Of a stretch of 64,000 nt of DNA, positions 42,411 through 60,986 are shown in pieces. The DNA is from a virus. Its lineage: Duplodnaviria > Caudoviricetes. Under the pieces are notes generated by a model. The model ran no database searches. It was not told the DNA's origin and saw nothing but the letters and a program-made list of their open reading frames with translations. Within the stretch, counting starts at the first letter, position 1. Every line of letters starts with the position of its first letter. The DNA lies in IMG/VR virus record IMGVR_UViG_3300017963_000189. One strand, given 5' to 3'. Made by a program: the position numbers and the translations under genes.

Positions 42411-42437
42411 AAAAAACCCGACAAGATATTTGTCGGG
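42411..42437 (-). terminator. Terminator/attenuator hairpin in Ro60 leader
   Basis: CCCGACAA-ATATC-TTGTCGGG plus T6, about 40 nt before the start codon. Confidence 0.7.
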
Positions 42438-42460
42438 TTACTATTGTAAACAAAATATCT

Positions 42461-42522
42461 TGGATAAAAAGTTGTTGATGTTATTTTTACGTGTGATCGC
42501 GATAATCATCAACTACGACCCA
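42461..42522 (-). ncRNA. Y-RNA-like element Y1
   Basis: TGGGTCGTA-GTTGATG-ATTATC...CATCAAC-AACTTTTTATCCA. Confidence 0.65.
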
Positions 42523-42599
42523 AATTATGTCTGAGATTGTAGGTTTTACAATCTCGTTACTGTTTGTACACATGGTACATCAGCTAAAATATAAAAAAT

Positions 42600-42915
42600 T
42601 GGCGGGATTCGCATCTACCCGCAAGCGTTCATTCAGACTTGAATTATTCGAGCATGTCGGTTAACAACCGTCGTTATTAACCTTATGACAGGAAGAACCT
42701 ATCTATTTATCTTCCAACGTCCACTAGCAGTAGCTCTATTGCCAATTATAATGGGGATTTTAGCAGACGAACCATTGATATGTTTTTTTCAACCCCAAGA
42801 GTTGATCCCACTCCCATATCGACAGTCTCTTATTCTCACTGAACTCGCAACCGACTCCCAGAACTTTTCAGTCTGGGCTATCGTACCTTACTCACCTGCA
42901 TGAGTTATTCAGTCA
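42600..42915 (-). ncRNA. Unidentified ~315-nt structured RNA
   Basis: No credible ORF, higher GC, closing stem GACTGAAT/ATTCAAGTC, GNRA hairpin CCCAGACT-GAAA-AGTTCTGGG, 3' hairpin GCGGG/CCCGC. Confidence 0.55.
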
Positions 42916-42944
42916 CAAAATTTTCAAAGATCAAAATAAAATGA

Positions 42945-43027
42945 TGGATAAAGGTGGCTAACGAGATTGACGCGCGTCACGTCCTGCGTTTTTTTCGATT
43001 AAAAGATAACGTTAAACCGACGACCCA
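42945..43027 (-). ncRNA. Y-RNA-like element Y2
   Basis: TGGGTCGTC-GGTTTAACG-TTATC...CGTTAGCC-ACCTTTATCCA. Confidence 0.65.
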
Positions 43028-43058
43028 TCAAGTCCTGTATCAATCAGGACTTGTTTAG

Positions 43059-43132
<74 letters not shown>

Positions 43133-43203
43133 ATACAATATGTTATATATACTTATATACTATTCAACTAAATAAAAGTTCCATTTTTCTCAAAAAAAAA
43201 TTT

Positions 43204-43437
43204 AGGATAAGGAACGACCAGAGAGAGTTGATTTTTCCGTGAAACTATCACGTCTTTTTAACGTTGTTGTTAAAGACTCTCAACGGGGCTTCTTAAACTT
43301 GCTCCCACACAAGAAACTCTAAGACCGCGAAAACTTTCTTCGGTTAAGATTTTACGACGCGGCTAGCAGATCGAGTTTACAATCTACCTTTCATCCTTTT
43401 AGAATTATCTGTAAGGTAACTCTGCATCAACGACCCT
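43204..43437 (-). ncRNA. Y-RNA-like element Y3 with ~190-nt inserted domain
   Basis: AGGGTCGTT-GATGCAGAG-TTACC...CTCTCTCTGGTC-GTTCCTTATCCT; own upstream promoter. Confidence 0.55.
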
Positions 43438-43569
43438 AAAAGTTGAGAAAAATTTTCAAAGAACTATTTGTACTACCATATATAAGTATATACAAATTTT
43501 CGAAACGTATCTATTATACTACTTTTTGTGAAAAAAAGTTCCATTTTTTGAAACTTTTTTTATTTTTTA

Positions 43570-43923
43570 TCATCCGTCTCGCCATGCTTCAGAATAAGTA
43601 GAAAATTCAAGATCATCACCGAACTTTTCCTTGAGTTTCTTTTCTACTCTCGCCTTAAATTCGGCTCCAGTTTCATCGTCTTTAACTTGATCCCACGACA
43701 CACCAATATAACAACCATAATCTCCGTCATAAGGCCATAGACATTCCATATCAAGTTCTTTTCCTAATTCATATCCAATTTCCCATACATCAGTATCATC
43801 GTCGTCGTTTTCAACTTCCATATTTAAAGCCTCACGAAATTCATCTTCCGATTCAAAACAAATTCCATAAATCAAGAATGAAGATGTGGAACTATTACTT
43901 ACAAACCCATTTCTTACTTTCAT
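43570..43923 (-). CDS. GFVSNSS-motif protein 8 (MKVRNGFVSNSSTSSF)
   Basis: N-terminal motif; AGGA RBS. Confidence 0.85.
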   Translation of the reverse strand: MKVRNGFVSNSSTSSFLIYGICFESEDEFREALNMEVENDDDDTDVWEIGYELGKELDMECLWPYDGDYGCYIGVSWDQVKDDETGAEFKARVEKKLKEKFGDDLEFSTYSEAWRDG

Positions 43924-43936
43924 ATTGTTTTCCTTT

Positions 43937-44314
43937 CTAACAATCTACTTCTACTTCAGCAACATTTTTAGGAAGTTTATCTTTAGCAGAATACCAAAGT
44001 TCACCTGGCCAGATTCCATCTACATTATCATATCCATATTTTTCTTCAAATTCTTCCTCAGACAAATCTTCATCTTCAGGTAATAATGTCACAGAAAAAT
44101 CTTCATAAAAACACCAATTACCTGTCATTCCACTAAAAATAACTACATCAAAATCACCAATTTTTTCTTCCTTTCGTCCTAAATAACTATTATCAATGAC
44201 TTGTTTCTCATAAACATCTAAATTGTCTCGCCATTCTTTTTCTTGTTCAGGTGTCATTACAATAGTAAAACTTGAACTTGAACTGTTTGATACAAAACCA
44301 CTACGTATTTTCAT
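43937..44314 (-). CDS. GFVSNSS-motif protein 7 (MKIRSGFVSNSSSSSF)
   Basis: N-terminal motif; AGGAGG RBS. Confidence 0.85.
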   Translation of the reverse strand: MKIRSGFVSNSSSSSFTIVMTPEQEKEWRDNLDVYEKQVIDNSYLGRKEEKIGDFDVVIFSGMTGNWCFYEDFSVTLLPEDEDLSEEEFEEKYGYDNVDGIWPGELWYSAKDKLPKNVAEVEVDC

Positions 44315-44328
44315 AACCTTTCCTCCTG

Positions 44329-44928
44329 TTAATGTCTACTTACTTTTATATGATATACCCTACGAAACAATGTACCATGTTCCATAGCAGCAAATAATGA
44401 ACTATCGTTATCACTATATTCAAATGTATAGAATACGGCGTCAGGATTCTTTTCCTTGAATCTCTCTAAAATAGCTTTCGCTCGTTTGTCACTTTCTTCC
44501 TCACGAGCTTTCCAACATTTTTCATATAACTCTCTACCCTTGTCCGTTGTATATCCACCATTTTCTAAGGCTTCCCTTTCCATTTCTTTATATTTTTCGT
44601 CTCGTTTGTCGCCACGATATACATCAACATGACCAGGTAATTCTTCATATCCATCAAACCAACCATCCCTGATACAATCCAACATTTGTTCATCAGTCGT
44701 CTCACCATCTTGTTCTTCAATGTCGGCCCATACGATTTGAGCTACTTGATCAACAGGCCAAAATGTGTCCTTGTCGTCCATTCCATATACAAAAGGATTT
44801 GGATAATCGTTTTGACCAGGTGAAAACAAAATCTCTTTTACATCGTTAATGTTTTTTGGTTTACGCGGAAACGCTACCAAAAATGAACTTGAACTTGAAT
44901 TACTTACAAAACCATTTCTAATCTTCAT
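44329..44928 (-). CDS. GFVSNSS-motif protein 6 (MKIRNGFVSNSSSSSF)
   Basis: N-terminal motif. Confidence 0.85.
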   Translation of the reverse strand: MKIRNGFVSNSSSSSFLVAFPRKPKNINDVKEILFSPGQNDYPNPFVYGMDDKDTFWPVDQVAQIVWADIEEQDGETTDEQMLDCIRDGWFDGYEELPGHVDVYRGDKRDEKYKEMEREALENGGYTTDKGRELYEKCWKAREEESDKRAKAILERFKEKNPDAVFYTFEYSDNDSSLFAAMEHGTLFRRVYHIKVSRH

Positions 44929-45403
44929 AACGATAACTACCTCTCTCTAAAAATTTATCAATATTGACTTCCCATGAACCTTTTTGATCCTTTACTTCGG
45001 CTAAATCCTTATACATCATATATTCCATACCAAAATTTCTGGCGATAAAAACATAATCGTTTCCTTTGTCATATTGTATATAATAATGATCGTAATGACA
45101 TAACGCCTTAAATGGAATATGATTTTTCAATAAAAACTCTATTACTTCCCACTCATTACATTCAATCGTATATCCATAAGCAGAAACTAACTCGCCTCTC
45201 AATTCCTCAAATTGATCTTGATAACTTACTTGATCTGGGTAATGAGCCATTGTTTTCCAAAATCCAAATCGTTCTAATTGTTCCATTTTCTTTTTTGATA
45301 TAAAAGTCTTTTCACATTTACCTTGAAAATCAAATTGATCCCTAAAATGAACTATAAAAGAACTTGAACTACTATTTGATACAAAACCATTTCTTACTTT
45401 CAT
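44918..45403 (-). CDS. GFVSNSS-motif protein 5 (MKVRNGFVSNSSSSSF; start 45403)
   Basis: N-terminal motif; GGAG RBS before internal ATG. Confidence 0.85.
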   Translation of the reverse strand: MKVRNGFVSNSSSSSFIVHFRDQFDFQGKCEKTFISKKKMEQLERFGFWKTMAHYPDQVSYQDQFEELRGELVSAYGYTIECNEWEVIEFLLKNHIPFKALCHYDHYYIQYDKGNDYVFIARNFGMEYMMYKDLAEVKDQKGSWEVNIDKFLERGSYRYED

Positions 45404-45405
45404 TG

Positions 45406-45678
45406 TTATCTCCACTCAACTTTATTCATGTCAATACCAATATATTCTAAAAACTTATACATATCAAAATTATCCATACTACACCAACCATGAATGTATT
45501 TTTCGCCAACATCTATATCCCATTCATCGTATTTACCAAAATAATCACCAACATTTTTTAATTTACCATACTCCAAATGATTCTTTATTTTGTATAGTTG
45601 TTTATCAGTTACACCGTCTCGTTCTATAATAAATGAACTTGATGAACTATTTGATACAAAACCTTGTCTTATCTTCAT
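45406..45678 (-). CDS. GFVSNSS-motif protein 4 (MKIRQGFVSNSSSSSF)
   Basis: N-terminal motif. Confidence 0.85.
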   Translation of the reverse strand: MKIRQGFVSNSSSSSFIIERDGVTDKQLYKIKNHLEYGKLKNVGDYFGKYDEWDIDVGEKYIHGWCSMDNFDMYKFLEYIGIDMNKVEWR

Positions 45679-45679
45679 A

Positions 45680-45997
45680 TTAACACAACCTTACACCAGA
45701 ATAAATCCTTACATCTTTTGAATTAGCACCAAACTCTTTTATAAGTTTTTCAGCCATTTGATTTATGTCCTCTAATGTTAAAACGTCACCACCAAAATCA
45801 GTTTCGTCACCCTCAGCAATCTCTATTCCTATAACAGTTTCATCAACTCCGTCCTCTCCGCCTTCATACAAAATTGTATATACATCTTGTAAATCATCTA
45901 ATTGATTCTCGTCATATTTACTATCGTCAAATGGAATGCCTACAATAACAAATGAACTTGTCGAACTATTACTTACAAACCCTACTCTTTTTTTCAT
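45680..45997 (-). CDS. GFVSNSS-motif protein 3 (MKKRVGFVSNSSTSSF)
   Basis: N-terminal motif; AGGAGG RBS. Confidence 0.85.
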   Translation of the reverse strand: MKKRVGFVSNSSTSSFVIVGIPFDDSKYDENQLDDLQDVYTILYEGGEDGVDETVIGIEIAEGDETDFGGDVLTLEDINQMAEKLIKEFGANSKDVRIYSGVRLC

Positions 45998-46009
45998 TGT
46001 CGCCTCCTA

Positions 46010-46426
46010 TTAATAATATTCCTCTTTTATGATTATAATTTCATCGGTTTTATAGTCAATACCCATTGGTACTAACATCATTGCTCCCATATCATCATAA
46101 TCTTGATCAGATACAGATCCCTCATACAACTTCCAACCATGATTTTTGACCTTATCATATATCTCAGGATACATATCCTCAAACTCTCCAGGTTCCCAGC
46201 ACCTATCATCTATAAATCCATCAAGAGTATATTCATCCGCATTATCAACAAACGCACCAGTGATTATGAAAATAAACTTCTCAACTAACTCTTTCATTGG
46301 AAAATCTTCAGTGGTTTTTATTCCATCTAATACCGTCTTAAAACTACTCTCCAGATCGCCTTCTTTTACCGCTATAACGAAGCTGGACGAGCTGGAATTA
46401 CTTACGAAACCTGTTCTTACTTTCAT
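46010..46426 (-). CDS. GFVSNSS-motif protein 2 (MKVRTGFVSNSSSSSF)
   Basis: N-terminal motif. Confidence 0.85.
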   Translation of the reverse strand: MKVRTGFVSNSSSSSFVIAVKEGDLESSFKTVLDGIKTTEDFPMKELVEKFIFIITGAFVDNADEYTLDGFIDDRCWEPGEFEDMYPEIYDKVKNHGWKLYEGSVSDQDYDDMGAMMLVPMGIDYKTDEIIIIKEEYY

Positions 46427-46438
46427 AATTTCTCCCTA

Positions 46439-46858
46439 TTAATAACTACAATATTCTAACATTTCATCAATGTCACCGATTGTCGTAGGTGAATGTTGAT
46501 CACATTCTCCAAATAATACAACTAACTCACCATCAGGTAAATCACTTTTATTAAGTTTCATATCTCCACCATAATCTGAAGCATATTTAGAAATTTCCAA
46601 AACAGTACCAACTTCTAAACGTTTTTCTCCCTCTACATCATCCGCATTAATCAACTCAAGTAATTTACCATATTCATTTTTGTCAAACCATTTGGTATTC
46701 AAGTGAATATATCCACCATCATAAGAATAACTCGTATCAATGAAATACTCATTTTTATTCAAATCTTCAACAGTCAAATCTTTGACATTTACTTTTTTTC
46801 CAATTACTACAAAACTTGAACTGGAACTGTTAGATACAAAACCATTTCTAATTTTCAT
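46439..46858 (-). CDS. GFVSNSS-motif protein 1 (MKIRNGFVSNSSSSSF)
   Basis: N-terminal motif. Confidence 0.85.
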   Translation of the reverse strand: MKIRNGFVSNSSSSSFVVIGKKVNVKDLTVEDLNKNEYFIDTSYSYDGGYIHLNTKWFDKNEYGKLLELINADDVEGEKRLEVGTVLEISKYASDYGGDMKLNKSDLPDGELVVLFGECDQHSPTTIGDIDEMLEYCSY

Positions 46859-46886
46859 AACTTATTCTCCCTACTTTATATTATTT

Positions 46887-47123
46887 TTATTGAGGCCATT
46901 CACTTGGAAATTTATCGAGGGCGACCCACACTGTTCCGCCTTCGTAGGGCTCGCCGTTCTCGTCGGCTAACTGAGCCTGAATTACACCATTTCGCTCTCG
47001 TAAATCGCTGATGTTAATTAAGCCCATTCCAAAAGGTGTGAGCCAAGGTGCTTCAAACGGAAGCTTGTTGATCGTGTCGCCAGTTGGCAGCTTCGCTTTT
47101 CCCAAAAATATGTTTTTTCCCAT
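46887..47123 (-). CDS. Hypothetical protein, locally GC-richer
   Basis: ORF with AGGAG RBS. Confidence 0.55.
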   Translation of the reverse strand: MGKNIFLGKAKLPTGDTINKLPFEAPWLTPFGMGLINISDLRERNGVIQAQLADENGEPYEGGTVWVALDKFPSEWPQ

Positions 47124-47134
47124 ATCATTTTCTC

Positions 47135-48169
47135 CTATATTTCATAATGTACACACGATTGTTTACATTCTCTACATTTAATTACTTTATTCCTAAACTC
47201 AATAACTCGTTCACTATTCCACAAATCATTGAGAAAATTGTCCACTTCATTTAACTTAATTCCCTCTTTCCAATCAGATTCACCTTCCATAAAACTACAA
47301 GGGAAAAACTCACCTTTTACATTGAAGTAACTTGAAAATAAACTTGATTCACATGGTTCAATGTATTGTTCATATTGAGAATCATTACCAACTGCTTTCA
47401 AAAACTTGAACGCACCACAACTATCAAATCCAATGGGAACATTATTTGAAAGGGCGAAATTGACAAGTTCACTAAATTTTTCTTGCGAAAGTTGAGTGTA
47501 ACGAGATTCTGCTCGACCCTTTTTCTTGAGTGACAAAAATACAATCGCGTTCATCTTTGATAAACGTTCGTCGTTATGTCTCTCATATATTAAACTACGC
47601 GCCTTGTCAAAAGTTTCATTTGAAATCATAAAATGTATGTTTACCTGATCCATACCACGATCGGTCAGTTTCTTGATCGTGTTGAATGTCATATCCTTGT
47701 CATAATAAGATACGGCTACCGCTCCACAAGCAGCTGCTAAATGATCTGCTAATTCGTCAGTAATACCAGCTCCGTTTACGGTGACATTTGGAATGACTTT
47801 GTTATCTCGACAATACTTGAAGATTTTCCACATATCAGGATTTGAATCTATATCACCTATACCAAAAGCGATTTGTGTGATTGTGGGCGGGAGTTTGGCG
47901 AAAAGTTCCTTGAATGTCTCTAATGTCATATATTCGCCGTTTGGATTGTTTTTCTTGTAACAAAAGTTACATGGAACACCAACACCTTTACACGATGTCG
48001 CTATCTCAATGTCAGCAATCTCAGGACCAAATGGTGAAAATTGTGGATCATCCTCTTGTGTCTTTCCCCAACGCGCAAAAAACCCACTTTTCCTATCAAA
48101 AATAAAGTTGTAATCTCGGGAGTGCAGATAAGTCTTGTCACCCTTATGGGCGATAATCGCTTTGTTCAT
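47135..48169 (-). CDS. Radical SAM enzyme with SPASM/twitch-like C-terminus
   Basis: CKGVGVPCNFCY (CX6CX2C), AFGIGD, VTVNG, GAVAVSY, PCESSLFSSYFNVKGEFFPCSF...CRECKQSC. Confidence 0.88.
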   Translation of the reverse strand: MNKAIIAHKGDKTYLHSRDYNFIFDRKSGFFARWGKTQEDDPQFSPFGPEIADIEIATSCKGVGVPCNFCYKKNNPNGEYMTLETFKELFAKLPPTITQIAFGIGDIDSNPDMWKIFKYCRDNKVIPNVTVNGAGITDELADHLAAACGAVAVSYYDKDMTFNTIKKLTDRGMDQVNIHFMISNETFDKARSLIYERHNDERLSKMNAIVFLSLKKKGRAESRYTQLSQEKFSELVNFALSNNVPIGFDSCGAFKFLKAVGNDSQYEQYIEPCESSLFSSYFNVKGEFFPCSFMEGESDWKEGIKLNEVDNFLNDLWNSERVIEFRNKVIKCRECKQSCVHYEI

Positions 48170-48537: not shown

Positions 48538-49041
48538 TCAACTGTTTTCTAATATTATTTCCTTATGTCCAAATGCGAACTCTTTATCCATTATTTCATC
48601 TATCTTGAACCAACCTATTTCTGCAGTTTCATTTTCCTCATTATATTTATTTGTCAATTCTGGAAGTTTATCCACTTGTATAAAAAACCTATATCTCAAC
48701 GTAACATTTTGTTTGTTTTGAGCAACATCAGATGCTACATAATATGGTTGATGTACATTAAGTAGATTGTCGCTGAAATATTGTTTTATATTTAATCCCG
48801 TTTCTTCATATATCTCACGAACAACGGCTTCAACTCCGGATTCATTCCAATCAAGATAACCACATGGTAAATTCCAATAACCTTGATAATCCGGTGCACC
48901 TTGTCCGCGCTGATTAATCAAAACATATGTTTCGCCTTTACAACGAACAAAAACTAATCCCACGACGGCAATAGAACGAGAAATCCAATAGACTTGCCCT
49001 TCATGTTCAATCATTTTATTTTGTACGTTATTAAATTTCAT
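48538..49041 (-). CDS. Nudix hydrolase (start MKFNNVQ)
   Basis: WNLPCGYLDWNESGVEAVVREIYEETG. Confidence 0.9.
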   Translation of the reverse strand: MKFNNVQNKMIEHEGQVYWISRSIAVVGLVFVRCKGETYVLINQRGQGAPDYQGYWNLPCGYLDWNESGVEAVVREIYEETGLNIKQYFSDNLLNVHQPYYVASDVAQNKQNVTLRYRFFIQVDKLPELTNKYNEENETAEIGWFKIDEIMDKEFAFGHKEIILENS

Positions 49042-49091
49042 AAAATCTCCTATTTTAATTGTTAGTAATATACGAAAATAAAAATGATTTG

Positions 49092-49286
49092 TCAACTGTT
49101 TTCTGATATTTCTTCAAATTCTATATCTTGTATTTCCTCAACGAAGTAAAGTAACCCATCTTTCTTTAAAACTAAATCGGCTTGTTTGTACCATCTAAAC
49201 CAATCTAACTTATCTGCCGAAAACCCCGTATCCGGAGTTTTCATTTTTACAACCCATCTTTTGTCTTGAAATGATAAAAATTCCAT
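49092..49286 (-). CDS. Hypothetical protein
   Basis: ORF track. Confidence 0.5.
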   Translation of the reverse strand: MEFLSFQDKRWVVKMKTPDTGFSADKLDWFRWYKQADLVLKKDGLLYFVEEIQDIEFEEISENS

Positions 49287-49597: not shown

Positions 49598-50014
49598 TTA
49601 TTTGATTTCTATTTCTTTTAGTTTTTCTTCCTCTTTTTTGGGAAGCGTAATTGTTAGGACACCATTCTTGAAATTGGCGTCGATGTTTTGTTTATCAAAA
49701 GAATCTCCAAGATAAAACCTACGAGCAAAAGTTTTACTACCTATCTCTCGATAAAGATATTTCTTCTTTTCCTCTTTTTCTTCTTTTACTTCGCCGGACA
49801 CGGTTAAGTAACCTTTTTCATACTCGATTTTGATGTCTTTCTTATCAAATCCTGGCGTTACGGCGACAACCTCTAATTGATCGTCTTTCTCAACAACGTC
49901 AACTTTTACATTGTCGCCATCGAAAAATCCCAGACTTCTCCGATTAAAAAAGAAATCACTATCATCAAAAAGTGACGGAATGTCGCGTGAAAAATATTTA
50001 ATTAAACTATCCAT
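49598..50014 (-). CDS. Small heat-shock protein Hsp20
   Basis: VDVVEKDD...PGFDKKDIKIE...LTVSGE...FARRFYL...ANFKNGVLTITLPK. Confidence 0.95.
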   Translation of the reverse strand: MDSLIKYFSRDIPSLFDDSDFFFNRRSLGFFDGDNVKVDVVEKDDQLEVVAVTPGFDKKDIKIEYEKGYLTVSGEVKEEKEEKKKYLYREIGSKTFARRFYLGDSFDKQNIDANFKNGVLTITLPKKEEEKLKEIEIK

Positions 50015-50149: not shown

Positions 50150-51352
50150 TTATGTCACACTTAGTATGACATCATTGTTCGTGTCGCCAAAAACGGTGGC
50201 GAAAATCGCTTCCTTCTTGTCAAGGATATAATAATATACATCAACCTGTTCGCTCGTCTTTCTCAATGTTTGATTCTTGTAATGTACATCTTTACCCTCT
50301 TTTATGATCTTATCATAATGTTTCAATCTTTCCAAGTTCTCATTGTTTGTAACTCTAAAATGTTCCTGAGCTCTTGACTTCATTGGTTTATTGATTATAT
50401 CTTGTCGTTTTAAACCGGTCAACTTCTCAAAACTTTCATTCGCATCAAGTATAATGTAATCGACCACTCTATTCTTTTTATCATAAATAAGTTTTTTGTA
50501 GGCTATCGCATTGAAACTACGATGAAAAAGTAACTTGTATTTTCTCTCGTTTTCTTTGGCTTGTTCAGTGAGAAATTTTGTTTTTGTTATGTCTTGAATC
50601 GTTTGTATAAAATATAATGGTTCATCGTTTGATGTTTTTTGTAAAGTGGTTGTAACCAACGCCCAGAAGTAGAAACCATTATATTTCTTGAATCGTTTCT
50701 CTACTTGAACAAAATCTTGACCACCATCTAATAACCTATTACAAATATAATCAACCGATTCCAGATCAGATTTATATGTTATATCTTTTGGAGTAAGATC
50801 AAGTATGTCGCCACGAGTGTAACCCAATAGGTTACAAAATGTGTCGTTTACATCCATGTATTTCATGTCCATGTCTACTATGGCTTGAGCGACACCGGGA
50901 TTGTTGAATAATCCATCGAATTTTTCTTGTTCGATTTTCTCAGTGTTCGCTAACATCCTCTCGTTCGTTACATCACGACCAACTAAAATAAGGTATTCAT
51001 CGTCGTATAAACCATGAGCTGGATCATCTTGTGATGGAGTGTTAGATATACGATGTATATAATACTTACATGATACTAACTTAGTATCACTATTTTTTGT
51101 TTGTATAAAGAATTCCTGTTCACCATTGAATGTTTCATTGAACATTTTTTGTAATACTTTTTCGGTGTTGTCCTTATCATCTTCTATTACTAATGATGAA
51201 AAAGGTTTTTCCTGCATTTCATGATGATTATATCCCAACGCCTTAAAAGTATTGTTATTTACTTCTTGTACTCGTTTGAATTCATCAATGATGAAAATCA
51301 TTGCATCAACTTCATTTAATAAGTTGTATAAAAAATCTTTATCATTTAACAT
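50150..51352 (-). CDS. Multi-PAS sensor protein without recognisable output domain
   Basis: Three PAS/PAC repeats (VNNNTFKALGY, VNDTFCNLLGYT...KDIT...QTIQDIT, ANESFEKLTG); ends after third PAS. Confidence 0.85.
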   Translation of the reverse strand: MLNDKDFLYNLLNEVDAMIFIIDEFKRVQEVNNNTFKALGYNHHEMQEKPFSSLVIEDDKDNTEKVLQKMFNETFNGEQEFFIQTKNSDTKLVSCKYYIHRISNTPSQDDPAHGLYDDEYLILVGRDVTNERMLANTEKIEQEKFDGLFNNPGVAQAIVDMDMKYMDVNDTFCNLLGYTRGDILDLTPKDITYKSDLESVDYICNRLLDGGQDFVQVEKRFKKYNGFYFWALVTTTLQKTSNDEPLYFIQTIQDITKTKFLTEQAKENERKYKLLFHRSFNAIAYKKLIYDKKNRVVDYIILDANESFEKLTGLKRQDIINKPMKSRAQEHFRVTNNENLERLKHYDKIIKEGKDVHYKNQTLRKTSEQVDVYYYILDKKEAIFATVFGDTNNDVILSVT

Positions 51353-51632: not shown

Positions 51633-52241
51633 TCAACCATAAAATTTTGATTCACCATATAGTAATTTTACCTCTTTCATGATAAAAGCATACATACGAG
51701 CAACATTATACGCATCGTCCATTCCACGATGGGGCGAGCCTTCAAACTCTAAACCAAGTACCTGAAGCGCGTTGTCCACGTTTCGTTGTACGTTTTGATT
51801 CGTCAAAAGTGAAAACCAATACTTGAAATTACTATGAGTATGTTTGAACGGATATTGTAATCCCTTTCTCTCACATTCTCTTTCTACTTGTTGTCTATCA
51901 AAATCTCCCCAGGACATCCATTCATATTTCGTTGTCTTGAACTCAGTCATCATCCTCGCCAGGGCATAGTCAAGGGCAAGACCATCCTTGATTATCATTT
52001 GTTGAGTGATACCTGTGAGTTTAGTGCAGTAATCTGTTATACCACTTAGACCCATCTCTGTAGGAATTATGAGATAACTTTCTTTCTTTTCGATCTCCAA
52101 TGATCTCGTATCAAGTTGTACTATTCCTATCTCAATCATTTCCATTACGTCACGTTGATTTCGTCCATCAGGAAGTATACCATTTTCCCAACAAGTGCTT
52201 TCCAAATCTACGAAATTTATTTTTTGTACCTTTTTCGCCAT
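51633..52241 (-). CDS. DEDDh 3'-5' exonuclease (KapD/ERI-1-like)
   Basis: FVDLESTCW, IIEIG, SWGDFDRQQ, HRGMDDAYN. Confidence 0.9.
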   Translation of the reverse strand: MAKKVQKINFVDLESTCWENGILPDGRNQRDVMEMIEIGIVQLDTRSLEIEKKESYLIIPTEMGLSGITDYCTKLTGITQQMIIKDGLALDYALARMMTEFKTTKYEWMSWGDFDRQQVERECERKGLQYPFKHTHSNFKYWFSLLTNQNVQRNVDNALQVLGLEFEGSPHRGMDDAYNVARMYAFIMKEVKLLYGESKFYG

Positions 52242-52753: not shown

Positions 52754-52933
52754 TATTTATTCCTTTATTTTATATTTCTTTTTCGCCAATTTAAGATTTT
52801 GTGCGGTCGCTTTATCTTTTTCTTCATCACTTGTACAACCATAACATACATCTTCTGACATACCAAAAATAACTAAATTGATTTCTTCACCACACTTTTT
52901 ACATATCATAATTTATTCCTTTATTTTGTGTAG

Positions 52934-53004
52934 TCCGCCCACCGGGAATCGAACCCGAATAAGTGAGTTTAGAAGTCACTGTTCTACCATTGAACTATGG
53001 GCAG
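52934..53004 (-). tRNA. tRNA with CUA anticodon (probable amber suppressor)
   Basis: CTGCCCA/TGGGCGG acceptor, GTTC/GAAC D-stem, GTGAC-TT CTA AA-CTCAC (C31:C39 mismatch), T-loop TTCGATT. Confidence 0.75.
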
Positions 53005-55638: not shown

Positions 55639-55858
55639 ATAACCCTTTCTTTTTGATGAATGTTTCACCGATTATAGTGTATATCTTCTTTAACTAATAA
55701 TTCGTTATAATGTTCCAACCAGGTTAAAAAAACTTGTCCTTTAGTTGTAAATTCATTTTTATCAATAGGTTTTTCGCCATGTTTCTCACATAACTTCTCA
55801 TATCGTCTATAATCTCGTAGTAAATCCTTGTCCATAATAACCCTTTCATTTTAGATAG

Positions 55859-55930
55859 TAGCGTGTAGCAGATTCGAACTGCTAAGGCAACAGGATATGA
55901 GCCCGTGCTGGACAACCAATCCGACACGCC
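55859..55930 (-). tRNA. tRNA-Met/Ile2(CAU), atypical D-arm
   Basis: ACGGG-CT CAT AT-CCTGT; AGCAG-TTCGAAT-CTGCT. Confidence 0.8.
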
Positions 55931-55939
55931 ATTCAACCG

Positions 55940-56012
55940 TGGGTCTGGTTGGAGTTGAACCAACGATCTTCGCCATGTCACGACGACGACTTAACCTCTT
56001 GTCCACAGACCC
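55940..56012 (-). tRNA. tRNA-Val(GAC)
   Basis: Cloverleaf; loop GT GAC AT. Confidence 0.88.
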
Positions 56013-56024
56013 AATATAACAATT

Positions 56025-56534
56025 TTAAAACCATTTGTCAAGGAAATTCTGGATTGTGTCCTCTTTTCCTCTCTTTATCCACCATTCTTTTCTAAGTAAT
56101 CCCTTAAAAACATATATCTCGTGTGTTAAAAAATTTGTTACTCCAAATAAAATCAACCCACTAAAAAATACCCATGACCATGTTTGTAAAGTCATTGATA
56201 TAACTGCTAATACATATCCACCTAAAATACCTACAAAATATGTCAAGTATTGAAATCCTTGTCTTATTATTTTCGCCCCATGCCATCCATCAAACATGAA
56301 CGCTGGTTTAACAATAAATCCTAACCACTTCTTTCTCGTTCCATCTTCATTATATTTTCGTTCCCACGCACTATCAGGATCAACCATATACCACGACCAC
56401 CAACCACCTTTTGGCAACCAATCAAAAATTGAATCTTCATAATAATATTGTAGACCATCTTCTATATCATTGAATATAATAGAAACTATCCACAACACTA
56501 AGGCGACAAAAAATAATATAATAAATAAAAGCAT
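56025..56534 (-). CDS. Membrane protein
   Basis: TM helices; FDGWHGAK motif. Confidence 0.6.
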   Translation of the reverse strand: MLLFIILFFVALVLWIVSIIFNDIEDGLQYYYEDSIFDWLPKGGWWSWYMVDPDSAWERKYNEDGTRKKWLGFIVKPAFMFDGWHGAKIIRQGFQYLTYFVGILGGYVLAVISMTLQTWSWVFFSGLILFGVTNFLTHEIYVFKGLLRKEWWIKRGKEDTIQNFLDKWF

Positions 56535-56551
56535 CTTATCTCTCCCATTTA

Positions 56552-56866
56552 TTATAAATAGTGTTCATTCTTTTCTTTCAACCATTCCATTAATAATTTA
56601 TTCTTTTCGCCGACATAAACAGGACACCACTCAAGAAACTCAAGCGGTTTCACTGTTCCATATGGAGCTCCAGTATCCCAGTGATACTCCATATCAAGAA
56701 ACTCCATTGTAAACTTTTGTCGTATTCCTATAAAACCTTGTTTCTTCTGATGATATACTCCAAGAGTAAAGTTACGAGCTAATATCATATATAAACCGGT
56801 ATGCTCACACTTTTCTATTGGTAAATAATCCTCAACATTTGTTGTATATCCCATACAATACTCCAA
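56552..56866 (-). CDS. Hypothetical protein
   Basis: ORF track. Confidence 0.55.
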   Translation of the reverse strand: MEYCMGYTTNVEDYLPIEKCEHTGLYMILARNFTLGVYHQKKQGFIGIRQKFTMEFLDMEYHWDTGAPYGTVKPLEFLEWCPVYVGEKNKLLMEWLKEKNEHYL

Positions 56867-56875
56867 CTTAATTTG

Positions 56876-57001
56876 TGGTATTTGTAGGATTCGAACCTAA
56901 ATTCCGGTGTATCAGACCGACGTGTTACCGTGAGCGGTTATCCAATAAGATTAACCGGTCTCTTATTGGCTTCCCTTTGTGCTCTATTACACTACCATAC
57001 C
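56876..57001 (-). ncRNA. tRNA-Ile(GAU)-like RNA with ~50-nt domain inserted in D-loop
   Basis: GTGT/ACAC D-stem, TCGGT-CT GAT AC-ACCGG, T-loop TTCGAAT; imperfect acceptor; insert closed by GAGC/GCTC. Confidence 0.7.
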
Positions 57002-57011
57002 ATTATACTCA

Positions 57012-57108
57012 CCCCGTCACTGCCAGGTTTTACTCAACTGCGCGGGTCGAACACTCCAAACCTACCGCGAATCGGTTTTGGAGACGGTGGAATTGAACCA
57101 CCACGGGA
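57012..57108 (-). ncRNA. Circularly permuted tRNA-like RNA (T-arm first, closed acceptor; YrlA-like topology)
   Basis: TCCCGT-[GGTGG TTCAATT CCACC]-CTCCAAA...TTTGGAG-...-ACGGGG. Confidence 0.55.
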
Positions 57109-57112
57109 TTAG

Positions 57113-57184
57113 TGGGAGCACCAGGAATCGAACCCGGAACTGGAGGTTAAGAGCCAACTGCGTTCCCAATTACGCCATACTCCC
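57113..57184 (-). tRNA. tRNA-Lys(CUU), mismatched anticodon stem
   Basis: Cloverleaf; CT CTT AA loop. Confidence 0.8.
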
Positions 57185-57192
57185 ATAACTAC

Positions 57193-57275
57193 TTTTCACC
57201 AAACTATATCAAAAATACCTACTTTTCACGATCAGTAACCATTTTTCACCAAATGACCTTGAAAATACCTACTTT
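57193..57275. repeat. Two-copy direct repeat TTTTCACCAAA-N-AAAATACCTACTTT, ~50-nt period
   Basis: Seen between tRNA-Lys and tRNA-Phe. Confidence 0.6.
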
Positions 57276-57276
57276 G

Positions 57277-57355
57277 TGGGAGCAGTCGGGATCGAACCGA
57301 CGACACCCCGGGCTTCAACCGAGTGCTCTACCATTCTAATCTGAGCTACACTCCC
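57277..57355 (-). tRNA. tRNA-Phe(GAA), enlarged D-loop
   Basis: Cloverleaf; TT GAA GC. Confidence 0.9.
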
Positions 57356-57485
57356 ATATATAAAATAAAATCGATCTTCCTCACATCCCTTTACTCTTGG
57401 AAGAATTGATAGAATACGTCTATCTCTTGATAAATGATATATAGGCCAGGGTTTGGCGACCCTTACACCATCAACGATTTTATAG

Positions 57486-57605
57486 TTGCGCGAGTAGGAT
57501 TCGAACCTACATCCTTCCTTTCCAATAAGATAACGTTTCTCCAGCGGCCCTGTTAGGACAAAAACGAAGCAACGGTTTTAGATGTTACCATTACACCATC
57601 GCGCA
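57486..57605 (-). ncRNA. tRNA-Gln-derived RNA with anticodon arm replaced by ~65-nt domain
   Basis: TGCGCGA/TCGCGCA acceptor; D-arm TGGTGTAATGGTAACATC identical to tRNA-Gln at 63109; perfect T-arm. Confidence 0.7.
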
Positions 57606-57613
57606 AATTAAAA

Positions 57614-57826
57614 CTATTTTTTTACTACCCTATATTGTGTTTTGCGGTAATTCTTCCAATTCTTTTTCTCTCGTTTTGGAAGATACCACCATCCACAACC
57701 ACCATATATACTACCGGTTCTTTGTAAACAAATCATACAAGGTACGTCTCTTACGTGTTTCCATTGTAATTTTTTGTAGACACTACTATTTGTAGTATTC
57801 TTTAGCGTTTCTCTTTTTCTCGTCAT
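57614..57826 (-). CDS. Small basic Cys-containing protein (paralog A)
   Basis: TTNSSVY...CMIC...KNWKNYRKTQY; start MTRKR within track ORF. Confidence 0.6.
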   Translation of the reverse strand: MTRKRETLKNTTNSSVYKKLQWKHVRDVPCMICLQRTGSIYGGCGWWYLPKREKKNWKNYRKTQYRVVKK

Positions 57827-57868
57827 TTTGATTCTCCTTATGTAATGTTTGACCACTACTAAGGAAAA

Positions 57869-58081
57869 TCATTCTCCATATTCATCATACATTATTACCT
57901 TGTATTGTGTTTTTCTGTAATGTTTCCAATTTTTACGATAATACGTTCTTTGGTTTTCATTACGATTATATTTACAACGTGAACATGAAATGATACATTG
58001 TAGTTCACGATAACGTTTTAACGCTAAGTTGTAAATACGACTGTTAGTTGTTGTATCAACTATTCTTTTGTATTTCGCCAT
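57869..58081 (-). CDS. Small basic Cys-containing protein (paralog B)
   Basis: TTNSRIY...CSRC...KNWKHYRKTQY. Confidence 0.6.
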   Translation of the reverse strand: MAKYKRIVDTTTNSRIYNLALKRYRELQCIISCSRCKYNRNENQRTYYRKNWKHYRKTQYKVIMYDEYGE

Positions 58082-58206
58082 TTGGTTTCTCCTTGAGTTA
58101 AAATTTACTTAACTCAAACGAAACCACTCCCTACATAATGTGTAAAATATGTCATATTATCTCCCGTTTTGACACATAATTGGTAATATATGTCACTTTA
58201 TTTTTG

Positions 58207-58289
58207 TGGTAAGGGTAGGATTTGAACCTACGAACCCTTGCGAGACCGGTTTTACAGACCGGCGCCTTTAACCACTCGGCCACCCTACC
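58207..58289 (-). tRNA. tRNA-Tyr(GUA)
   Basis: Cloverleaf with long variable arm. Confidence 0.95.
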
Positions 58290-58320
58290 AAATCTTATTC
58301 TAAACCAATACTATATCTCA

Positions 58321-58473
58321 TTAGTAATCAACTTTCCCGCGACAAGCTTTACGGGATTGTTCACGTTTTTTGTTTTTGATTTTACGAACACGGTAACGTC
58401 CATCAAAGAAACCATCACGTTTCTGGATTTCTCTCAAAACACCTTTGTTCATATTTATGTTTACATTACTCAT
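58321..58473 (-). CDS. Small basic hypothetical protein (GFFDGRYR)
   Basis: 3' part of track ORF 58321..58515. Confidence 0.5.
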   Translation of the reverse strand: MSNVNINMNKGVLREIQKRDGFFDGRYRVRKIKNKKREQSRKACRGKVDY

Positions 58474-58718
58474 TAGACCATCACTACTTTCTTTTGTTTC
58501 AACCAAGTTAGACAATCATCTAACTCTTGTTCATCTATTTCGCCATTCAATAACTGACACTGCCAGTTCAACATATTTGAGATAACTTCTTTCCTTACAA
58601 ACTTCCCTTTTGGGAAATCATCTAAGGCTAATCCTAACAAAGGCGTAGTATCTACACCAGGATAAGTCTTTCCATTTCTCAAATCGTCAACTACTTCTTT
58701 TACGTCAGCTTTTGTCAT
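58473..58718 (-). CDS. Hypothetical protein
   Basis: ORF behind TTGACA promoter. Confidence 0.55.
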   Translation of the reverse strand: MTKADVKEVVDDLRNGKTYPGVDTTPLLGLALDDFPKGKFVRKEVISNMLNWQCQLLNGEIDEQELDDCLTWLKQKKVVMV

Positions 58719-58797
58719 TTCTCAAATCCTCTCTAAATGTTATACCTAAATATACAACATTTTTTTGGATTTGTCAACTGTTTTCTGGTTTTTTTTG

Positions 58798-58871
58798 TAC
58801 CGCGAGTTGGATTTGAACCAACGACTTCCTGCTTGTAAGGCAGACACTCTAAACCCCTGAGTTACCGCGGC
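58798..58871 (-). tRNA. tRNA-Val(UAC)
   Basis: Cloverleaf. Confidence 0.95.
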
Positions 58872-58885
58872 ATATAATGTTCCTT

Positions 58886-59021
58886 TGGTACGAGAGGCAA
58901 GACTTCATCCTTGCGCTTATGTATTGTAACCTATATGATCAACCTATAAGCCATACATCGTATGGAAGCGAATCAAACATACAGCGCTGACTTTGTTTGA
59001 CTTTTTCTCTACCTCTCTCGC
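58886..59021 (-). ncRNA. tRNA-like RNA (acceptor + T-like arm + encoded ACCA) with multi-hairpin core
   Basis: GCGAGAG/CTCTCGT-ACCA; GCAAG-GATGAAGT-CTTGC; hairpins TCAAACA/TGTTTGA, CCATAC/GTATGG, GCTTAT/ATAAGC. Confidence 0.6.
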
Positions 59022-59036
59022 CAGAGAAACATTGTG

Positions 59037-59110
59037 CTCCACCGGTAGGATTCGAACCTACGACAAGTCGGTTAACAGCCGACCGCTCTACCTGACTGAG
59101 CTACAGTGGA
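59037..59110 (-). tRNA. tRNA-Asn(GUU)
   Basis: Cloverleaf. Confidence 0.95.
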
Positions 59111-59113
59111 ATT

Positions 59114-59188
59114 TGGCTGGCCCGCCTGGACTTGAACCAGGAATGCTTGAGTCAAAGTCAAGTGTGTTGCCAATTACACCACGAGCCA
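59114..59188 (-). tRNA. tRNA-Gln(UUG), CCA encoded
   Basis: Cloverleaf. Confidence 0.95.
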
Positions 59189-59196
59189 ATTTCTTG

Positions 59197-59269
59197 TGGA
59201 GGCCCTGAGAATCGAACTCAGCTCTTCACGGGCTTCAACCGAACGCTTCACCAGGATAGCTTGACCTCC
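59197..59269 (-). tRNA. tRNA-Phe(GAA)
   Basis: Cloverleaf. Confidence 0.88.
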
Positions 59270-59278
59270 AAAAAAAAT

Positions 59279-59389
59279 GGGTAAGTGTCGAATAAGATAA
59301 ATCTCCCAAAGGGAGTTGTGGGGCTTGATCCCACGGCGATCCAGATTCGTAAATCCGACCGCCAACCAGGTAACCTTATCCATCGACCC
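59279..59389 (-). ncRNA. Y-RNA-like element Y4 with tRNA-like domain
   Basis: GGGTCGATGGATAAG-GTTACC...T-arm GTGGG-ATCAAGC-CCCAC, CTCCC/GGGAG hairpin...CTTATTCGACACTTACCC. Confidence 0.7.
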
Positions 59390-59395
59390 ACTTAG

Positions 59396-59588
59396 TTCTC
59401 AGAGTTGGAATCGAACCAACTTCCGTACAAGGTTTATTGTAGTTACTTACTATTCACACATTGTTTATTTTTCAGGCCTCAATGTGTGGGCTTCACTACA
59501 ATCTCACTTGATTCTACTTAGATTCGGCTGATCGCGATCAGCAGGAACGATCTAAGTCAACGTGTCTTACCGCATAAACGATCCAAGA
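59396..59588 (-). ncRNA. tRNA-like RNA with ~130-nt domain replacing anticodon arm
   Basis: TCTTGGA/TCTGAGA acceptor, GTTT/AGAC D-stem, GTTGG-TTCGATT-CCAAC; insert stems ACTTAGAT/ATCTAAGT, GCTGATC/GATCAGC, ATTGTAGT/ACTACAAT, CACACATTG/CAATGTGTG. Confidence 0.7.
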
Positions 59589-59589
59589 G

Positions 59590-59664
59590 CGGAACCGACG
59601 GGACTTGAACCCGCAAGCCTTCGCCTTGACAGGGCGATGTGCTAACCAATTACACCACGGCTCC
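59590..59664 (-). tRNA. tRNA-Asp(GUC)
   Basis: Cloverleaf. Confidence 0.95.
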
Positions 59665-59703
59665 AAATAAGAACAGTTTCACATCTTGTTCAGGATGTAA
59701 AAA

Positions 59704-60123
59704 TTACTGCAACAACGTCAGGTTCAGGAATGGGAAATGTCTTTTCAACTCAACTTCGTGTTTCAATAATACCTTAGCTTCCGGTTCCGCTTTCAATAAG
59801 ACATCTAAAGAATCGTAGTAAGTAACATCGTTGACTTCCGCTTCCCAGCCGTAGCAAGAACAGTGTCCGTCATACAATACTGCCCATCTACCATCTTTAG
59901 TTATTCCTATTTCAGTAGCGCCTTCTTCGTAATCATCCAAGTAAAACCCATCATACATTATCAACCACACTACTTCAACACCTTTCAACGCAAATTGTAA
60001 ACGATCAATGTTATCAACTCCAGATTCAATAGCATATTCCCCGTAGAATCCGTTGTCATAACTTTCCTGCAACGCTTTTTGTTGATAGTTGTACGCTTTT
60101 CTCCAAGTTTGTAAAGTTTTCAT
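59704..60123 (-). CDS. Hypothetical protein
   Basis: ORF with GGAG RBS; HCSCYG motif. Confidence 0.6.
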   Translation of the reverse strand: MKTLQTWRKAYNYQQKALQESYDNGFYGEYAIESGVDNIDRLQFALKGVEVVWLIMYDGFYLDDYEEGATEIGITKDGRWAVLYDGHCSCYGWEAEVNDVTYYDSLDVLLKAEPEAKVLLKHEVELKRHFPFLNLTLLQ

Positions 60124-60238
60124 GGCAATTCTCCTTATGTTAGTTTATGGTTTCTAAGTAGTTAAGAATTGCTTAACTTTACCATACCTATCATTTGGAT
60201 TGTCGCCTAAAAAATTTACTTCTCAAAGATCAAACTTG

Positions 60239-60311
60239 TGCCCCCACTTGGATTCGAACCAAGAACTCACCGCTTAAAAGGCGGGTGCGTTACCATTGAC
60301 GCCATGGAGGC
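60239..60311 (-). tRNA. tRNA-Lys(UUU)
   Basis: Cloverleaf. Confidence 0.93.
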
Positions 60312-60313
60312 AA

Positions 60314-60553
60314 TTACATACTATTTTTTATCGCACTTACTATTTGGTAAAAATTCATTATCGTCCAATTCTTGTATACCATCACTTCACCATCAGAATA
60401 ATGAACTACCATTTTTATTTTTCCATAAAATTTACATATTTTGTCGCCGTTCTCGTTGATAAATGTGACCTTGTTATTCTCTACAATAAAATCACACTCA
60501 ACTTCAATGGCGACCCACTTGTAAAAATCGTAAAAAACTCTATCATTGTCCAT
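60314..60553 (-). CDS. Hypothetical protein
   Basis: ORF behind TTGACA promoter. Confidence 0.5.
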   Translation of the reverse strand: MDNDRVFYDFYKWVAIEVECDFIVENNKVTFINENGDKICKFYGKIKMVVHYSDGEVMVYKNWTIMNFYQIVSAIKNSM

Positions 60554-60627
60554 CGTTTATTCCTTTAACGTATATATAAATATACGAAAAAAATGTAAAC
60601 TTGTCAACTGTTTTTTCAGATTTTTTG

Positions 60628-60699
60628 TAGGCCTGCAAGGTAACGATCCTTGTTCTCCCGCTTAAAAGGCGGGTGCTTCACCATTAAAGCTTCAGACCC
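60628..60699 (-). tRNA. tRNA-Lys(UUU), variant T-loop
   Basis: Cloverleaf; T-loop ATCGTTA. Confidence 0.85.
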
Positions 60700-60707
60700 A
60701 TAATTTG

Positions 60708-60780
60708 TGGAGCTACTCGGATTCGAACCGAGAACTCAGGCTTGCAAGGCGAGCGTAGTTCCCATTACTACCATAGCCCC
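60708..60780 (-). tRNA. tRNA-Ala(UGC), mismatched anticodon stem
   Basis: Cloverleaf; G3:U70. Confidence 0.85.
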
Positions 60781-60790
60781 ATATCATTTG

Positions 60791-60863
60791 TGGAGACGAT
60801 CGGAATCGAACCGACCACAGTCTGCTTGCAAGGCAGTCTCGCCCCCTTGGCACATGCGCCCCC
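60791..60863 (-). tRNA. tRNA-Ala(UGC)
   Basis: Cloverleaf; G3:U70. Confidence 0.85.
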
Positions 60864-60915
60864 ATAAAAGACAATCGTTTTAGGTTATCTCAACTCAAAC
60901 AACCTTTTTTACTTG

Positions 60916-60986
60916 TCCGCACAGAGAGAATCGAACTCCCATTTACTGGATATAAGCCAGGTGCTCTACCGTTGAACTATGCGCGG
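60916..60986 (-). tRNA. tRNA-Ile(UAU)
   Basis: CCTGG-CT TAT AT-CCAGT; A73. Confidence 0.85.

Follow-up and report, generated by a model that had tools for sequence, protein, structure and literature searches.

The lanthionine synthetase ProcM is one enzyme with many substrates, whose variable cores follow a long leader, and the internal-protein locus of phage T4 encodes proteins with a common capsid-targeting sequence, which ends in Leu/Ile-x-Glu and serves as a signal for the protease and scaffold. Peptides that are synthesized ribosomally and modified post-translationally (RiPPs) consist of a conserved leader and a variable core, and their radical S-adenosylmethionine (SAM) maturases bind the leader through a PqqD-like winged-helix domain. 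The radical SAM/SPASM enzymes anSME and QhpD target a short motif within a full-length protein, anSME acting on Ser or Cys. Avs defense systems are STAND NTPases that have an effector at the N-terminus and a sensor at the C-terminus; the described Avs2 proteins act alone, to our knowledge. In the HXS antiphage system, HxsA is reported to be matured by the radical SAM proteins HxsB and HxsC together with HxsD (Nat Commun 2026, PMC13128918). The 64,000-nt stretch of phage DNA analyzed here, which is referred to as the window and belongs to the IMG/VR record IMGVR_UViG_3300017963_000189 (Duplodnaviria; Caudoviricetes), carries a gene for a radical SAM/SPASM-like enzyme and, downstream of it, an array of eight tandem genes (positions 43570-46858 in the window) whose products share an N-terminal motif of 16 residues, hereafter the tag. 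The enzyme and the tag together probably form an unrecognized protein-modification system that operates in phage-host conflict.

The tag of the eight window proteins reads MK-[IVK]-R-x-GFVSNSS-[ST]-SSF. An earlier reading of this DNA made from its letters, hereafter the original prediction, described eight tandem open reading frames (ORFs) that begin with a near-invariant motif and continue into acidic bodies. All eight are present on the minus strand with 90-199 codons, 13 of the 16 motif positions (M1, K2, R4, G6, F7, V8, S9, N10, S11, S12, S14, S15 and F16) are identical in all of them (alignment A1), and their isoelectric points (pI) lie between 4.05 and 5.61. The further claim that the conservation is at the protein level also stands. 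Because the Ser codons switch between the AGY and TCN boxes from copy to copy (AGT 21, TCA 15, TCC 4, TCT 3, AGC 2 and TCG 2), selection has acted on the protein. The first 48 nt of the tag genes have a mean nucleotide identity of 0.68 and share a codon at just 56% of the invariant residues, and this divergence rules out a DNA repeat. The consensus of the wider family is MK-[IV]-[RK]-x-[GD]-F-V-[ST]-NSS-[ST]-[ST]-SF, and K2, a basic residue at position 4, an aromatic residue at position 7, [VI]8, [ST]9, N10, S11, S12, S15 and F16 are constant across the phage and bacterial clades. Most phage copies have Gly at position 6, several have Ser or Cys, and the bacterial copies mostly have Asp. A glycyl radical, for which IRNGFV of the tag was compared with RVSGY of the R-V-x-G-[FY] loop, is excluded because position 6 is mostly Asp in bacteria, in addition to being Ser or Cys in some phages. 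A pair of glycyl-radical protein and activase was also rejected, as the Arg-Gly spacing is one residue short and the enzyme has a SPASM-like domain, which the activase lacks. Thioether chemistry on the tag is excluded because the tag contains no Cys.

The enzyme gene (47135-48169, minus strand) encodes 344 residues and, as had been predicted, lies upstream of the array in the same orientation. Its product belongs to the radical SAM superfamily on the basis of a match to PF04055 (30.9 bits; gathering cut-off, 29.5), the three-Cys motif and the barrel, and its SPASM/twitch-like C-terminal domain matches PF13186 (23.5 bits; cut-off, 21.5). It matches phrog_7293 with an E value of 3e-91, a PHROG family with no assigned function. 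The cluster-binding Cys residues, C60-x6-C67-x2-C70, are invariant in 35 homologues (alignment A4). The CX6CX2C spacing, which had been regarded as atypical, is just a loop-length variant, and the canonical CX3CX2C is found in 21 of the 35. The extra Cys residues noticed at the C-terminus are six in number, C251, C273, C291, C332, C335 and C339; the auxiliary domain of the window enzyme has CX2CX3C, four of the six residues are invariant in the phage clade, and the full CX2CX5CX3C is present in the bacterial clade. SPASM domains have seven or eight Cys residues including CX2CX5CX3C and hold two clusters, and twitch domains have about four and hold one. Judging from these residues, one auxiliary cluster is likely in the window enzyme and a second is possible. 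No PqqD or RiPP recognition element family was found in the enzyme by Pfam and NCBIfam searches, its N-terminus consisting of four beta-strands with neither helices nor a winged helix. In an AlphaFold2 (AF2) model with a predicted local distance difference test (pLDDT) score of 94.5, these strands (residues 5-34) precede the barrel, and the sheet bears a conserved GFF-x-RWG hairpin. The nearest solved folds are the peptide- and protein-modifying enzymes SkfB, TigE, SuiB, CteB, anSME (anSMEcpe being among the structural neighbors) and EpeE, with Foldseek E values of 3e-10 to 1e-6, template modeling scores of about 0.5-0.63 and sequence identities of 11-16%. At the level of sequence profiles, SkfB and BtrN are the sole neighbors, both weak. 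NCBIfam gives no equivalog for the enzyme, only generic SPASM-family hits of 13-21 bits against cut-offs of at least 265, and NCBIfam and PADLOC return nothing specific for the window proteins.

Linkage between the tag and the enzyme was examined in 72 tag-seeded and 79 enzyme-seeded IMG/VR loci, with genes counted as nearby when they lie within 10 kb. An enzyme homologue with 36-59% identity is present within this distance and on the same strand in 47 of the 72 tag-seeded loci, where the tag arrays comprise 1-14 genes and the enzyme gene usually flanks them. Conversely, at least one tag gene, mostly directly downstream, accompanies the enzyme in 65 of the 79 enzyme-seeded loci. The co-occurrence that the original prediction proposed to look for is thus seen in both directions, and motif genes were not commonly found to occur without the radical SAM gene in the sampled loci. 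A whole-record search of 15 tag loci with no nearby enzyme found the enzyme elsewhere in all four records that are at least 94% complete, and the records without it are all 6-88% complete. Clustering of the ORFs in the 72 tag-seeded loci gave the tag family in 72, the enzyme in 47 and the next best family in 7, so that no third conserved family emerged from these loci. Minimal forms are found in cultured T4-like phages. In both RB43 and KP15, a single enzyme gene (43% identity) is accompanied by a pair of tag genes at a distance of about 20 kb, and RB16 also has one enzyme gene and two tag genes. As a separate observation, a gene of about 738 codons lies between the two tag genes in KP15 (locus L176, 67826-70042) and in RB43 (locus L001, 6868-9087), and the KP15 gene is annotated with a metal-ion-dependent adhesion site (MIDAS) of the vWA type. 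Kaur et al. 2020 report a radical SAM enzyme together with a 'peptide-effector' in vWA-MoxR-FtsH ternary conflict systems, which may be connected with the present family.

A scan for the strict phage tag in one genome per prokaryotic species gave 21 loci, all in metagenome-assembled genomes. Seven of them (Acidobacteriota and Verrucomicrobiota) contain a common cassette of a large NTPase, a protein of about 128 residues, a tag protein of 137 residues and a radical SAM enzyme with 31% full-length identity to the window enzyme. When this bacterial enzyme clade was used as the seed, 171 matches were confirmed, and 80 of them were retained as the basis of the bacterial counts; isolates of Agrobacterium, Rhizobium, Vibrio, Orbus, Chitinophaga, Clostridium, Arenibacter, Cellulophaga, Sphingomonas and Paracoccus are among them, including Agrobacterium tumefaciens ATCC 4720, Vibrio atypicus DSM 25292, Chitinophaga oryziterrae and Clostridium puniceum. 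In 79 of the 80 loci, a tag gene ends at the start of the enzyme gene, and the lone exception is cut by a contig end. The bacterial tag gene encodes 122-165 residues starting with MK-[IV]-[KR]-x-[DG]-F-V-[ST]-NSSSTSF. It is preceded by a gene for about 120-150 residues in 76 of 77 loci, which in turn is preceded in 73 of 77 by a gene for 711-1077 residues of the STAND class (signal transduction ATPases with numerous domains). The product of this large gene matches the PADLOC models of Avs2 (E values down to 1e-31) and the NACHT and nSTAND models of Pfam. Among 46 STAND N-termini, 20 carry SMEK_N and two a trypsin-like domain; PNP, NNH5 (a NACHT N-terminal helical domain) and an alpha/beta-hydrolase occur once each, and the rest are unassigned. 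Antiviral STAND sensors show this modular pattern of swapped N-terminal domains. PADLOC recognizes the four-gene cassette through its STAND gene alone, and the cassette is spread over many phyla, including cultured strains. One cassette locus lies in a defense island, with a type IIG restriction-modification gene on one side and integrases on the other. Representative cassettes are found in loci L161 (6736-11502), L198 (4584-9032) and L221 (4610-9062).

The bacterial and phage forms are related through the tag proteins as well as through the enzymes. A hidden Markov model (HMM) built from 77 bacterial tag proteins aligns with residues 1-107 of window paralogue 2 (E value, 2.3e-9) and with only the first 19-35 residues of the other seven, and it matches 37 ORFs in 31 phage loci over nearly their full length. 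An HMM of the accessory protein of about 125 residues has no match among all phage-locus and window ORFs. In a tree of 174 enzyme sequences, the phage and bacterial clades separate cleanly by a long branch at the midpoint root, which does not give the direction of descent. The window module contains no STAND gene, the window ORFs having been screened for one in part; a search of the phage's own record with the STAND protein gave no match, lacked a positive control and carries no weight. Because the sister enzyme-tag pair ends an Avs2-like STAND cassette in bacteria, the proteins of the phage array are most likely conflict effectors.

A co-folding prediction was made with the enzyme, two 4Fe-4S clusters, SAM and the 90-residue tag protein 4. 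It scored 0.68, compared with 0.01 for the best of three controls; of 80 solved complexes, 58 reach this mark, as do 2 of 110 mismatched pairs, a calibration that is only rough because custom alignments were used and ligands included. The runs have at least 68% of their contacts in common, and the fold of the partner body is uncertain (pLDDT, 41-42). On the partner side, the confident contacts involve residues 1-10 only. On the enzyme side, they involve residues 28-35, 38-41, 51, 53, 99, 101, 126, 128-130, 148-152, 175, 177, 179, 210 and 268-271. Tag residues 1-4 lie against the enzyme strand 30-34 of the GFF-x-RWG hairpin, and tag residues 6-8 contact 99, 126-130, 148-152 and 175-179 within the barrel. 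The contacted surface is conserved: 18 of the 32 contacted enzyme residues are invariant or near-invariant, compared with 50 of the other 312 (Fisher p 1.4e-6). The model thus places tag residues 1-10 in the enzyme barrel, which supports binding and does not prove it. In an alternative reading, the tag proteins would be adaptors instead of substrates, with the tag docking the body on the enzyme and the body either bringing its own target (a protein of host or phage, a nucleic acid or a metabolite) to the active site or regulating the enzyme. An invariant tag on highly diverse bodies, the position of the tag at the conserved hairpin and the association of the bacterial pair with a sensor NTPase, which fits a regulated enzyme, are all compatible with adaptors. 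However, residues 6-8 fill the barrel interior in the co-fold with no obvious space for a second substrate, and the tag is always at the extreme N-terminus with an invariant aromatic/Asn/Ser core, which resembles a reaction site rather than a docking strand. An adaptor role is therefore judged unlikely.

The bodies that follow the tag are highly diverse. Pfam and NCBIfam assign no family to the eight tag proteins; phrog_7397 matches the 199-residue paralogue over its full length (E value, 3e-14) and the other seven over residues 1 to 19-29 or weakly. For each of the eight, a separate orthologous subfamily exists in other phages. A profile of 58 tag proteins matches 25,254 cluster representatives (50% identity; E value of 0.001 or less) among 1.84 billion, with the matches nearly always starting at residue 1, and the Atlas neighbors of the tag proteins are 95-100% viral. 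A Pfam search with 58 body representatives gave no significant or recurring match, and the five isolated hits have E values of 0.001-0.009. In an AF2 monomer model of the 199-residue paralogue (pLDDT, 86), residues 1-9 are disordered (pLDDT below 50) and residues 13-20 form the first core strand, suggesting that the tag consists of a free tail in its first half and of a structural element in its second. The body of this paralogue finds no convincing solved fold, the best E value being 2.7 against the PDB in Foldseek and the Z score reaching at most 5.8, over a helical hairpin, in a wide VIA-align 2 search; the AFDB clusters returned only unnamed relatives. Its subfamily (29 sequences; alignment A3) conserves D173, E183, H184, H193, S197 and the C-terminal H199, and residues 173-199 look like a metal or catalytic site. 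Some bodies have Cys/His-rich motifs resembling zinc ribbons directly after the tag (L057:2562-2951, L059:10681-11055, L075:11253-11738, L008:7287-7775 and others), a further sign of unrelated domains acquiring the same tag.

These data bear on the idea that the motif is merely a first strand and loop conserved in a single fold family that evolves fast, with the enzyme acting on something else. Residues 13-20 are indeed the first core strand in the AF2 model, the Atlas models of two paralogues bear a weak resemblance to small alpha/beta sandwiches, the 199-residue subfamily has additional conserved D/E/H residues, and single-linkage clustering of full-length ORFs at 50% coverage joins nearly all tag proteins. 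This idea is very improbable, however. The tag is not simply a buried core strand, as the strand covers only residues 13-20 and residues 1-9 remain outside the fold as a free tail; an hhalign comparison of the 199-residue and 90-residue subfamily profiles aligns residues 1-32 only; and the 457 unique tag proteins of the fetched loci split into 114 body clusters, including 81 singletons, when the first 20 residues are removed. One fold family would also leave the near-obligate pairing with the enzyme unexplained. The free tail would also fit a sorting or stability signal, such as one for capsid targeting, secretion or an N-degron, which would act independently of the enzyme and be linked to it only by shared timing. 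A short N-terminal element on tandem unrelated small proteins in a plastic region is reminiscent of the T4 internal proteins. On the other side, the tag has neither a Leu/Ile-x-Glu protease site nor the hydrophobic core of a signal peptide, the same pair occurs in bacterial cassettes without any virion context, the linkage to one enzyme family holds in both directions and across genomes with no other gene conserved, and the co-fold passed its controls. There is accordingly very little probability that the tag is such a signal.

The original prediction that a single maturase uses a common tag to act on a family of substrates is supported by the two-way synteny, the near-complete genomes, the lack of a third component and the co-fold. 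It is likely that radical modification directed by the tag licenses diverse conflict effectors. In the mechanism proposed here, one radical SAM/SPASM-like enzyme would recognize the 16-residue tag at the extreme N-terminus, with tag residues 1-4 pairing as a beta-strand with the N-terminal hairpin of the enzyme (residues 30-34) and residues 6-8 lying in the barrel over conserved residues, Phe7 being the deepest. The 5'-deoxyadenosyl radical would then abstract a hydrogen atom and install one common modification, for example a cross-link or epimerization around F7-N10; an aromatic cross-link, an ether link and epimerization at this site are all compatible with the tag sequence. S13-F16 and the following hydrophobic residues would form the first core strand of each body, so that every body would carry the same N-terminal modification. 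The phage array would thus supply diversified conflict effectors for host take-over or counter-defense, whose activity, stability or targeting would need the modification.

Several observations weigh against this mechanism. The conflict role is drawn from the gene neighborhood alone, and the defense activity of the bacterial cassette is putative. The enzyme and tag genes are not adjacent in the T4-like phages, and about one third of the tag-seeded loci have no enzyme gene within 10 kb, although most of these records are incomplete. The co-fold resembles the solved SuiB-SuiA, CteB and anSME-peptide complexes, and its passing the controls may partly reflect this likeness; the body of the partner is poorly modeled. 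N10-F16 is the most conserved part of the tag in both clades, and yet it is not among the confident contacts. In addition, the conserved D/E/H residues of the 199-residue paralogue raise the possibility that some bodies are enzymes in which the tag is structural.

The tag family is among the larger unannotated protein families measured here, lacks a model in both Pfam and NCBIfam, is nearly confined to phages and has one radical SAM enzyme as its only constant companion. If the enzyme does modify the tag, the modification would be a new post-translational class, placed at the extreme N-terminus of folded proteins instead of a RiPP core, and would provide the first biochemical handle on thousands of phage dark-matter genes. 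The sister cassette suggests that an undescribed NLR-like immune system made up of several genes exists. A broader possibility, tentative and rather doubtful at present, is that N-terminal radical SAM modification is a shared currency of phage-bacterium conflict: large phages would deploy arrays of up to 14 unrelated effectors, licensed by one enzyme through the tag, bacteria would pair the sister enzyme and one tag protein with an NLR-like Avs2-type sensor, the modified bacterial tag protein would serve immunity as a bait, a ligand or an effector, and paralogue 2 would be a viral mimic or antagonist of it. Since the phage and bacterial forms both occur in cultured organisms, both sides are directly testable.

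In the array, all on the minus strand, tag protein 1 (139 residues, pI 4.45; 46439-46858) has its own orthologous subfamily in other phages, and tag protein 2 (138 residues, pI 4.19; 46010-46426) is the only paralogue whose relationship with the bacterial cassette's tag protein extends over most of its length. Tag protein 3 (105 residues, pI 4.05; 45680-45997) combines the tag with its own subfamily, and tag protein 4 (90 residues, pI 5.61; 45406-45678) is the co-fold partner. Tag protein 5 (pI 5.58; 44918-45403) has 161 residues from the ATG at 45403 or 165 from an upstream GTG. They are followed by tag protein 6 (199 residues, pI 4.88; 44329-44928), the full-length member of phrog_7397, by tag protein 7 (125 residues, pI 4.14; 43937-44314), recognized by its tag, and by tag protein 8 (117 residues, pI 4.06; 43570-43923), which belongs to the commonest body subfamily of the sampled loci. 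The intergenic gaps range from -11 to 28 nt, a Shine-Dalgarno-like site precedes every tag gene, and a search for intergenic terminators within the array found none; co-transcription of the array is plausible from this arrangement. The enzyme gene is upstream of the array on the same strand, as had been stated, but the array does not follow it directly: an ORF of 78 codons (46887-47123, minus strand) with no Pfam, PHROG or NCBIfam match separates the first tag gene from that of the enzyme. This ORF has no homologue in the 72 related viral loci and lies outside the conserved module, and an ORF of 99 codons on the other flank of the enzyme gene has no homologue in the related loci either.

The source is a large uncultured phage with a GC content of about 35%, and nearly all window genes are on the minus strand. 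Its IMG/VR record is 161.6 kb long with an estimated completeness of 70% and contains exactly eight tag genes and one enzyme gene. Identical proteins are also found on a 309-kb contig. Two public DNA datasets, a sediment and a seawater metagenome, contain this DNA and are both possible sources, and no RNA dataset is listed; a megablast search of the locus against cultured phages gave no match. Just downstream of the array lies a gene for a Ro60/TROVE protein with a vWA domain (PF05731 and PF25045; 40727-42424, minus strand). The intervening stretch of about 1.1 kb (42425-43569) has no convincing ORF and holds only a tRNA-Met (43058-43132), the sole match in an Rfam scan of this stretch at gathering thresholds; a Y-RNA-like partner of the Ro60/TROVE protein could lie there. 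Upstream of the enzyme gene, also on the minus strand, are genes for a Nudix hydrolase (48538-49095), an Hsp20 small heat-shock protein (49598-50014), a multi-PAS-domain protein (50150-51352) and an RNase T-like exonuclease (51633-52241), and in KP15, too, a Nudix gene lies about 6 kb away from that of the enzyme. ARAGORN makes 37 tRNA calls in the window, including one tRNA with a CTA anticodon (amber suppressor type) and one call with a four-base anticodon, and finds a tmRNA with the tag peptide GNELQLAA; these tmRNA and tRNA features lie at 18153-18484, 17728-17802, 52933-53004, 29283-29363 and 55858-63991. The ORFs called with translation table 11 look intact despite the suppressor-type tRNA.

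A literature search on the motif, phage radical SAM enzymes, jumbo-phage RiPPs and SMEK/STAND/Avs2 proteins found no paper clearly describing the enzyme-tag pair, and Ophion is a different radical SAM system. Like the RiPP maturases SkfB, SuiB, CteB, TigE and EpeE/YydG, the phage enzyme is encoded beside its presumed clients, with recognition by beta-strand pairing predicted here. However, a four-stranded N-terminal sheet takes the place of the winged-helix leader binder, and the conserved extreme N-terminus itself, rather than a variable core, is predicted to enter the active site. The clients also differ from RiPPs in being folded, phage-encoded proteins of 90-300 residues with many unrelated bodies and no Cys in the tag. 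The invariant aromatic-[VI]-[ST]-N core of the tag would be compatible with the bond found in triceptides and other aromatic cross-link RiPPs, an enzyme-made C-C bond that joins an aromatic residue to one at least two positions away. Modification of a short motif on a full-length protein is shared with anSME and QhpD, but the clients here are neither sulfatases nor dehydrogenase subunits and the enzyme has six auxiliary Cys residues, compared with the full SPASM set of seven or eight; an anSME system was rejected, as the (C/S)-x-(P/A)-x-R motif is absent from the tag and no body contains a sulfatase domain. ProcM and the T4 internal proteins resemble the phage array in having tandem divergent genes with a short N-terminal element read by one machine, and neither of them uses radical SAM chemistry or carries this motif. 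In the bacterial cassette, the first gene is Avs2-like with interchangeable N-terminal effector domains, and unlike in Avs2, a small protein, a tag protein and a radical SAM enzyme are conserved alongside the STAND gene. The nearest published precedent is HXS (PMC13128918), in which a protein effector in defense is reported to be matured by radical SAM enzymes and a small accessory protein is present, as in the bacterial cassette. Membership of HXS itself was rejected, as the phage record has one radical SAM gene, the tag proteins have no His-x-Ser repeats and no NCBIfam Hxs model matches. HXS is reported to comprise two radical SAM proteins, His-x-Ser repeats and a peptidoglycan-binding periplasmic effector, with no STAND NTPase, whereas the system described here has one enzyme, an N-terminal Ser-rich tag, acidic proteins that look cytoplasmic and a phage-encoded form with multiple clients.

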